Assembly: GCF_003334335.1 (NCBI RefSeq)
Contig: NZ_QOWQ01000001.1
Strand: one strand, 5' to 3'
DNA: 64,000 bases
From: Escherichia coli
GTDB lineage: Bacteria; Pseudomonadota; Gammaproteobacteria; Enterobacterales; Enterobacteriaceae
Shown one piece after another: positions 57,001 through 60,000 of this stretch. The position numbers were made by a program. How positions within the stretch are numbered: the first letter of the stretch is position 1; each line of letters begins with the position of its first letter.

Positions 57001-60000
57001 CAAACCGTACGGATGGTTTTTGAATTAAAGCAAAACGTAAAACCGCAGCTGTTTGCCCTTGCGCCGGTCGCCGGGTTTAAAGAGCGTCTGGTGATGGACC
57101 TCTATCCGGCCAATGCACAGGATATGCAGGACCCGCTGCTGGCGCTGCTGGAGGATTACAACAAAGGCGACCTCGAAAAGCAGGTGCCGCCAGCGCAAAG
57201 TGGTCCACAACCGGGTAAAGCAGGGCGCGATCGTCCGATTGTCATTATGCTTGACCCTGGCCACGGTGGCGAAGACTCCGGTGCGGTGGGGAAATACAAA
57301 ACGCGCGAAAAAGATGTGGTATTGCAAATAGCTCGCCGTTTGCGCTCTCTGATCGAGAAAGAGGGCAATATGAAGGTGTACATGACGCGCAATGAAGACA
57401 TCTTCATTCCATTGCAAGTGCGCGTAGCAAAAGCCCAGAAACAGCGTGCTGACCTGTTTGTCTCTATCCATGCCGACGCCTTTACCAGTCGTCAGCCGAG
57501 CGGTTCCTCTGTGTTTGCGCTCTCAACCAAAGGTGCAACCAGTACTGCGGCAAAATATCTGGCACAAACCCAGAACGCCTCGGACTTGATTGGTGGCGTG
57601 AGCAAAAGCGGTGACCGCTATGTCGACCACACCATGTTCGATATGGTACAGTCGCTGACCATTGCCGACAGCCTGAAGTTTGGTAAAGCGGTACTGAATA
57701 AGCTCGGTAAAATCAACAAGCTGCATAAAAATCAAGTTGAACAGGCCGGGTTTGCCGTACTAAAGGCACCAGATATTCCCTCCATTCTGGTCGAAACGGC
57801 GTTTATCAGTAACGTTGAGGAAGAGCGTAAACTGAAAACGGCGACTTTCCAGCAGGAAGTTGCGGAGTCTATTCTTGCGGGGATTAAAGCGTATTTTGCC
57901 GATGGGGCGACGCTGGCGAGAAGGGGATGATAAAAAGGCGCTGAATGGCGCTTTTTTATGGGAGACCAGAAACAAAAAAACACCCGTTAGGGTGTTCAAT
58001 AATTGGTTGCGGGGGCCGGATTTGAACCGACGACCTTCGGGTTATGAGCCCGACGAGCTACCAGGCTGCTCCACCCCGCGTCCGTGGATGCGCACTATAC
58101 TCCGCTCGCGTTTTCATGCAACCTTTTTTTTACCCCGATCACGGATTTGGCATGATTTTGAACAAAAACAAATCACTAAAGCCTATTTTTTGTGCAAAAT
58201 TTGCGTCAGGGAGAGGCTGCTCATTTCATTAAACGCGGCGGTTTGTTATCTTCGTTGCGCCTTATTTTTTAACCTGAAGAAGAGAACAATGAAAGGACGT
58301 TGGGTAAAGTACCTTCTTATGGGCACGGTTGTGGCAATGCTTGCCGCCTGCTCTTCCAAACCAACCGATCGCGGACAGCAATATAAAGACGGGAAATTTA
58401 CCCAGCCTTTCTCTCTGGTGAACCAGCCAGATGCCGTTGGCGCGCCGATTAACGCCGGTGATTTTGCCGAGCAAATTAACCATATCCGTAATTCGTCACC
58501 GCGTCTGTATGGCAACCAGAGTAATGTTTATAACGCGGTGCAAGAGTGGCTGCGCGCAGGCGGTGATACCCGCAATATGCGCCAGTTCGGCATTGATGCC
58601 TGGCAGATGGAAGGTGCCGACAACTATGGTAACGTGCAGTTTACCGGTTATTACACGCCGGTAATTCAGGCGCGCCATACCCGCCAGGGCGAGTTCCAGT
58701 ATCCTATTTACCGTATGCCGCCAAAACGTGGTCGTCTGCCGTCTCGTGCGGAGATCTACGCGGGGGCATTGAGTGATAAATATATTCTCGCTTACAGTAA
58801 CTCCCTGATGGATAACTTCATTATGGATGTGCAGGGTAGTGGGTATATCGACTTTGGTGATGGCAGTCCGCTTAACTTTTTCAGCTATGCAGGGAAAAAC
58901 GGTCATGCCTATCGCAGCATTGGTAAGGTGCTGATCGACCGTGGCGAAGTGAAAAAAGAAGATATGTCGATGCAGGCGATTCGTCACTGGGGCGAAACAC
59001 ACAGTGAAGCCGAGGTTCGCGAGCTGCTGGAACAGAACCCGTCTTTCGTCTTCTTTAAACCGCAATCTTTTGCTCCGGTGAAAGGGGCAAGTGCGGTGCC
59101 GCTGGTTGGTCGCGCGTCAGTTGCCTCTGATCGTTCCATTATTCCGCCAGGTACTACCTTGCTGGCAGAAGTGCCGTTGCTGGATAATAACGGCAAATTT
59201 AATGGTCAGTACGAACTGCGTCTGATGGTGGCGCTGGATGTCGGTGGTGCAATCAAAGGCCAACACTTCGATATCTATCAAGGGATCGGGCCGGAAGCCG
59301 GACACCGCGCAGGTTGGTACAACCACTATGGACGTGTCTGGGTGCTGAAAACCGCCCCGGGCGCAGGTAACGTCTTTAGCGGCTGATGTGATATTCTGTA
59401 TGCCGTTTTTACGGATATGACAGGGTGAGGGGTAACCTCACATCCTGATTATTGACTAAGTGCGCGTTGTTCATGCCGGATGCGGCGTGAACGCCTTATC
59501 CGGCCTACAAATCATGCAAATCCAAAATATTGCAGGAGTTATGTAGGCCTGATAAGCGTAGCGCATCAGGCATTTATGCGTTTAGGGTGAGGGATAACCT
59601 CGCCCTTTTTAATTCTGAGGTGCTATGTCTGTGGTAATTAGTGATGCATGGCGTCAGCGTTTTGGTGGCACAGCGCGTCTGTATGGTGAAAAAGCGTTGC
59701 AACTGTTTGCTGACGCGCATATTTGTGTGGTTGGTATCGGTGGTGTCGGTTCCTGGGCGGCGGAAGCGCTGGCGCGCACGGGGATTGGCGCAATCACGCT
59801 TATCGATATGGATGATGTGTGCGTCACCAATACCAATCGGCAAATTCATGCCCTGCGCGATAACGTTGGGCTGGCAAAAGCGGAAGTTATGGCGGAGCGT
59901 ATTCGCCAGATTAACCCGGAGTGCCGTGTAACGGTGGTGGATGATTTCGTGACGCCGGATAACGTAGCGCAGTATATGAGCGTGGGTTATTCGTACGTGA

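Follow-up and report, generated by a model that had tools for sequence, protein, structure and literature searches.

One initiator tRNA gene at metZWV in a draft Escherichia coli genome: assembly collapse or recent loss of two tandem copies

Introduction

The closest described systems to the locus analysed here are the metZWV initiator tRNA operon of Escherichia coli K-12, the laboratory strains with fewer initiator tRNA genes, the islands associated with metV, and an amplification in Salmonella. The metZWV operon is under stringent control, as cited in PMC3017606. Deletion of the whole operon causes a mild growth defect and cold sensitivity, with the tRNA level tracking the gene number (PMC3017606; PMC11480407), and it lowers the fidelity of initiation (PMC3017606). 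According to the part of Samhita 2014 that is summarised in PMC9981150, fewer initiator tRNA genes are advantageous in poor media.

Here we analyse the metZWV locus in a stretch of 64,000 nucleotides of E. coli DNA (hereafter called the window), in which a single initiator tRNA gene occupies this position. The laboratory strains (PMC3017606; Samhita 2014, as far as its summary goes) likewise have fewer of these initiator tRNA genes. However, they were engineered or selected, whereas the window comes from the draft assembly of a natural isolate and is known from the assembly alone. The metV gene is also a known integration hotspot (PMC7545054, PMC3032704). The metV-associated islands occupy the same tRNA locus: in CFT073, W and B2/F strains, clusters for T6SS or for sugar utilisation lie downstream of metV. 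We saw such islands in four other E. coli sequences examined, whereas the window has none. In Salmonella, the tandem amplification of initiator tRNA genes reportedly makes up for the fitness that is lost through antibiotic resistance (a finding attributed to Nilsson et al. 2006, PNAS 103:6976), and the copy change is said to proceed by exchange between the tandem copies and to be linked to formylation defects. Unlike the state of the window, this amplification is a gain under selection, in the opposite direction.

Results

The tRNA gene and its flanks

The 64-kb window contains one tRNA gene, tRNA-Met(CAT) at 58004-58080 on the minus strand (ARAGORN). ARAGORN, Rfam and the gene calls all confirm what had been read from the sequence alone, namely one 77-nt initiator tRNA-fMet on this strand between amiC and mltA. 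The further claim that this gene has its own terminator is borne out by the terminator scan, which found a hairpin followed by a T run. The features of the locus are as follows.

58004..58080, minus strand: initiator tRNA gene of the tRNAfMet1 type, the sole copy at the locus (ARAGORN, Rfam, K-12 alignment)
57968..57997, minus strand: intrinsic terminator, with the hairpin at 57997-57978 and then a T-rich tail (terminator scan, K-12 alignment)
58094..58121, minus strand: putative promoter, with the -35 element TTGCAT at 58121-58116, a 16-nt spacer and the -10 element TATAGT at 58099-58094 (by eye)
56677..57930, plus strand: amiC, the flank on the 3' side of the tRNA (gene calls, ORF list, annotation of near-identical genomes)
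58289..59386, plus strand: mltA, the flank on the promoter side of the tRNA (gene calls, ORF list)

The Rfam tRNA model RF00005 matches 58004-58080 with a score of 61.4 bits, and its alignment marks 1:72, with a C opposite an A, as a non-canonical pair. In the alignment, the gene is identical to K-12 metZ, metW and metV at 77/77 nt and has the G46 (tRNAfMet1) form. The initiator hallmarks comprise the C1xA72 mismatch, the encoded CCA and the G at position 46. In addition, the anticodon stem-loop, read from the sequence and the alignment as UCGGG CUCAUAA CCCGA, contains three consecutive G-C pairs, which are a described feature of the initiator tRNA (PMC3017606). From the 100% identity with K-12 metZ/W/V, we infer that the tRNA would be formylated by Fmt and would function in initiation. 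The 77/77 nt identity, the C1xA72 mismatch, the three G-C pairs and the CCA, together with the intact leader and terminator, all argue against the idea that this is no functional initiator tRNA gene but, for example, one for an elongator tRNA-Met or a decayed remnant. Judged by the sequence identity, this explanation is refuted, and its probability is close to nil.

The terminator region at 57968-57997 aligns identically with the trailer after metV in K-12, and the region upstream of the tRNA shows the same full identity with K-12 metZ. On the 3' side of the putative -10 element come a GC-rich discriminator and then a short leader (58093-58081). The consensus promoter scan called no promoter upstream of the tRNA, where the -35 element matches at only 3/6 positions; the promoter recognised by eye probably lies at 58121-58094. 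Around the tRNA, the leader ends in …GCGCATCCACGGA and the trailer begins with ATTATTGAACACCC…. As written, the single-gene metZWV has all the parts of a transcription unit.

The tRNA and amiC are not separated by a genomic island, and amiC comes directly after the terminator. From the amiC stop to the mltA start, the intergenic region measures 358 bp, as compared to 578 bp when three copies are present. On the promoter side, the translation of the window mltA is the exact MltA protein. Farther on, in the mltA-tcdA intergenic region, Rfam matches the ES036 (CssrF) sRNA at 59508-59550 on the plus strand, with 46.5 bits as compared to the gathering score of 37.6.

Comparison with K-12

The comparison with MG1655 showed that the sequence-only reading had correctly given K-12 three tandem copies, metZ, metW and metV, at this locus. 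In MG1655 the copies are spaced at 110 bp, which consists of the 77-nt tRNA and a 33-nt spacer, and the two spacers are slightly unlike each other (spacer 1, ATTAAAATTTGATGAAGTAAAGCAGTACGGTGA; spacer 2, ATCAAATTTGATGAAGTAAAAGCAGTACGGTGA). W3110 and DH10B also have three copies each at metZWV. When the array is defined as three tandem identical genes at 110-bp spacing, the window falls outside the definition, with one gene only. The position between mltA and amiC is the same as in K-12, and the two sequences are identical in the upstream region with the leader, in the 77-nt tRNA, and in the trailer with the terminator. In contrast, the window has one gene as compared to three, and both of the 33-nt spacers are absent. 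Exactly 220 bp are lacking, corresponding to two 110-bp units with both spacers, while the metZ leader and the metV trailer with its terminator are retained. Elsewhere, the window differs from K-12 by 17 SNPs and one gap over ~55 kb.

The two BLAST pieces of the comparison with K-12 overlap exactly on the following stretch of the window.

58000..58082, no strand assigned: 83-nt stretch, GA + tRNA + ATTA, common to the first and third repeat copies (BLAST against K-12)

No direct repeat was found within 57900-58300 of the window itself. On the evidence of this overlap, the contraction junction would lie somewhere inside 58000-58082, and no finer placement is possible. A whole number of units has been lost and the junction falls inside identical sequence, which is the same whether the loss took place in a cell or in an assembler. 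The structure is the expected product of an exchange between the first and third copies, and equally that of an assembler skipping both spacer loops.

The window also contains, at 1122-9325 (8.2 kb), a remnant of the ETT2 type III secretion system (PrgH/EprH, SctT, SctI and others), several genes of which are frameshifted in the annotation of the near-identical BR1220. K-12 has IS2H and a deletion there, and the source of the window is therefore K-12-like but not K-12.

Source assembly and close relatives

The source, GCA_003334335.1 (contig QOWQ01000001.1, 246 kb), is a draft WGS assembly, in which the single tRNA is present and no mismatch occurs over the 22.9 kb compared. Two ptrA changes, at window positions 46810 and 46879, are private to the lineage; both affect second codon positions near the PtrA N-terminus. 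The exact PtrA protein of the window is found in only 18 public contigs (we examined two of them), none of which exceeds 1 Mb, and the lineage therefore has no finished genome. The RecC of the window was rejected as a lineage anchor, as its allele is common (53,318 blocks).

Among the complete E. coli genomes compared, none is identical to the window. The closest ones are phylogroup-A-like, such as P13-6, BA92, NCTC9038 and BR1220, and P13-6 differs from the window by ~4-5 mismatches in 25 kb, as estimated from the bit score. Of the complete relatives that were checked, the four nearest to the window (P13-6, BA92, NCTC9038 and Z1323HEC0011) each have three copies. BR1220 has one copy, but it is 15 SNPs in 64 kb away from the window, and thus no closer than K-12.

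A Logan contig from a second strain that shares the rare PtrA allele differs from the window by 4 SNPs in 21 kb and ends 26 nt into the tRNA. Logan uses k = 31. We simulated the contig ends at metZWV in a k=31 de Bruijn graph, according to the copy number and the spacer content. In all simulated cases that include spacer 1, the contig extends 26 nt into the tRNA; it extends 28 nt when there are two copies with spacer 2, and 30 nt when there is one copy. The metZWV trailer has no bases in common with the 3' flank of metY, and therefore metY does not explain the 26-nt end. Accordingly, given k=31 and a pure-culture sample, which the inference presupposes, the 26-nt end indicates that this relative has at least two copies. 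The deletion in the window, if real, is therefore recent.

Copy number across E. coli

We counted the copies in 5,426 complete E. coli genomes. The leader plus tRNA was matched in 5,424/5,426 of these genomes, while the junction of tRNA end, spacer and tRNA start, which marks at least two copies, was found in 5,195 genomes (10,308 junctions, at most five per genome). By the difference between the leader-tRNA and junction counts, metZWV is single-copy in ~229/5,426 genomes (~4.2%). At least two copies are thus present in ~96% of the 5,426 genomes; three is the number in roughly nine genomes out of ten, and four to six copies are found in a few. The exact trailer-tRNA-leader structure of the window occurs in 109 genomes (2.0%), and the single-copy genomes without the window flanks are likely to be mostly backgrounds with a genomic island after the array. 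A two-copy structure with spacer 1 occurs in 116 genomes (2.1%).

The metZWV array expands as well as contracts. The expansion reaches six copies (five junctions), and at least 34 junctions lie beyond the three-copy norm.

In the two-copy alleles of DH5a and the O6:H16 ETEC, spacer 1 is kept exactly, and either metW-spacer 2 or spacer 2-metV is lost. In the O6:H16 ETEC and related genomes, the two-copy allele recurs under several different accession series, and it looks like an inherited allele. The mltA allele of this O6:H16 lineage was considered as an inheritance test in drafts and was rejected, as other backgrounds combine this allele with a three-copy array. In BL21(RP), NZ_CP084683.1, the match to the leader-proximal tRNA begins only at query position 25, and no tRNA is annotated; these two points suggest that the assembly contains an array which is truncated or rearranged.

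Control arrays

As controls we used glyVXY, a neighbour of orn, and valUXY, which lies with lysV beside xapR. Both are structurally matched arrays of identical 76-77-nt genes, and we searched for their one-copy forms in the complete genomes. A third array, leuQPV, was rejected as a control for the non-identity of its three tRNA genes. The longest shared repeat is 94 nt in metZWV, and 93 and 84 nt in the two control arrays; judged by their structure, the control arrays should collapse no less readily than metZWV. The one-copy forms were distributed as follows.

glyVXY: one copy in 15 genomes (0.28%); metZWV also single-copy in at least 5, with 0.3-0.6 expected
valUXY: one copy in 26 genomes (0.48%); metZWV also single-copy in at least 7, with 0.5-1.1 expected

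The hypergeometric P values for these overlaps range from 3e-4 to 5e-7. Both control arrays are collapsed in three genomes, an overlap that likewise lies far above chance, and all three arrays in TUM14664. It is implausible that a single genome would have undergone separate deletions in two or three arrays unrelated to each other, and these genomes are therefore collapse-prone assemblies. The assemblies flagged in this way include TUM14664, HS13-1, TUM2826, MC1061, OV2, 2011C-3493 and Xuzhou21. Like the window, MC1061 (CP195014), OV2 (CP195020), 2011C-3493 (NC_018658) and TUM14664 (CP135649) have the leader, one tRNA and the trailer at metZWV; in these four, however, glyVXY and/or valUXY is also one-copy, which marks the assemblies as artefacts.

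A second collapsed array is present in only 11/87 among the single-copy metZWV genomes listed. Moreover, the control arrays are one-copy in 0.28% and 0.48% of the genomes, as compared to 4.2% for metZWV, and therefore generic collapse does not explain most of the single-copy calls. By a rough capture-recapture estimate, ~40% (range 25-70%) of these calls come from collapse-prone assemblies. The remaining single-copy metZWV calls are best explained as real deletions. The glyVXY junctions are found at 10,408 places in 5,406 genomes, implying that several hundred genomes have only two copies of that array, be it a lineage trait or an artefact.

Assembly behaviour at metZWV

How do assemblies behave at this array? 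In the "complete" ST648 genome NZ_CP008697.1, a single "n" replaces the whole array, between the metV-island gene cluster and the metZ leader, and some draft contigs break inside the metZWV array. The O104:H4 assemblies disagree with each other: 2011C-3493 and 2009EL-2050 have one copy, and HUSEC2011 and 2009EL-2071 have two. MC1061 has one copy at metZWV, and DH10B, which we take to be a derivative of MC1061, has three.

Names of Swiss project series account for 24/87 among the single-copy genomes listed, with the country verified for GF4, ABW_A19, STK78-E and STEC17-183. The sources in these series are unrelated, with isolates from chicken meat, wastewater and imported vegetables as well as human STEC, and the flanks fall into several haplotypes. 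The Swiss clustering is a laboratory or pipeline signal. A non-Swiss draft that shares its mltA allele with one of the Swiss single-copy genomes has three copies.

As a point against collapse, 13/13 other spanning contigs that we sampled kept at least two copies: 12 of them have three copies, including 11/11 drafts, and one complete genome has two. When a short-read assembler fails at metZWV, the result is usually a broken contig rather than a collapse. Tandem Repeats Finder detected no other tandem repeat in the 64-kb window, which therefore provides no internal control for collapse.

Discussion

The sequence-only reading had proposed either recombination between repeats or assembly collapse. 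This was the right frame, as both occur at metZWV in other genomes. We give assembly collapse about an even chance as the origin of the single-copy metZWV of the window. In this process, the short-read draft assembly would have joined the leader, one tRNA and the trailer; the two 33-nt spacers would have been dropped, and the 110-bp units lost, by an exchange of the identical first and third tRNA copies in the assembler. For this particular assembly collapse is an inference, and we favour it slightly because the source is a draft, the relatives have more copies, and collapse has been demonstrated elsewhere. A threefold read depth over the tRNA had been suggested as the sign of collapse. However, metY is a fourth near-identical copy elsewhere, so the depth over the tRNA is confounded and threefold is not the right expectation.

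A genuine, recent deletion in the cell, with two units lost by replication slippage or by unequal homologous recombination across the 83 nt that the first and third copies share, has a probability just under one half; collapse is slightly more likely, and the sequence is identical under both. The deletion is plausible because of the control arrays, the normally correct drafts and the known tolerance of lower dosage. Single-copy metZWV (4.2%; 2.0% with the window flanks) is 5-15 times commoner than one-copy glyVXY or valUXY, and the rough estimate assigns only ~40% (25-70%) of the single-copy calls to collapse-prone assemblies. The expansion of the array to six copies cannot be produced by collapse, the two-copy allele of the O6:H16 ETEC and its relatives, in several accession series, points to inheritance, drafts spanning the array normally report three copies, and the loss of even the whole operon is viable. 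In contrast, the one-copy state is absent from the closest complete relatives checked and from the strain with the same PtrA allele, and any deletion must therefore be very recent. Moreover, the source is a draft assembly, and the single-copy calls cluster by sequencing project. As for an ancestral state, in which the lineage would never have had three copies, other bacteria do have loci with only one initiator tRNA gene (PMC3017606), a point with nothing specific to this lineage. Against it, three copies with the same two spacers are present in every E. coli background sampled (K-12-like, O157:H7, O111, O145 and island-bearing), including strains that are only ~15-17 SNPs over 55-64 kb from the window. 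The ancestral state is thus highly improbable, being effectively refuted by the distribution among close relatives.

If the favoured reading, assembly collapse, is correct, the window is a further reminder that even "complete" genomes can give wrong counts for tandem tRNA arrays. Since assemblies prone to collapse may account for ~40% (25-70%) of the single-copy calls at metZWV, assembly-based tRNA counts need a read check. The locus is a known one and so is the kind of change, and neither outcome alters the knowledge of the locus. The only mildly new point is the population excess of single-copy metZWV over the matched arrays, pending read-level confirmation.

If the deletion is real, the one-gene operon would give one third of the usual metZWV output and, with metY elsewhere, the genome would hold two initiator tRNA genes as compared to four. 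The effects of this dosage in K-12 concern growth in rich as compared to poor media, cold tolerance and start-site fidelity. We also consider, tentatively and at somewhat less than even odds, that the contraction of metZWV to one gene is a genuine, recurrent polymorphism of E. coli, which arises repeatedly on terminal branches at 5-15 times the frequency of the matched arrays, with the window as one case. If this is true, it would suggest that some habitats or storage conditions tolerate or favour a lower initiator tRNA dosage, as the laboratory competition experiments would lead one to expect.
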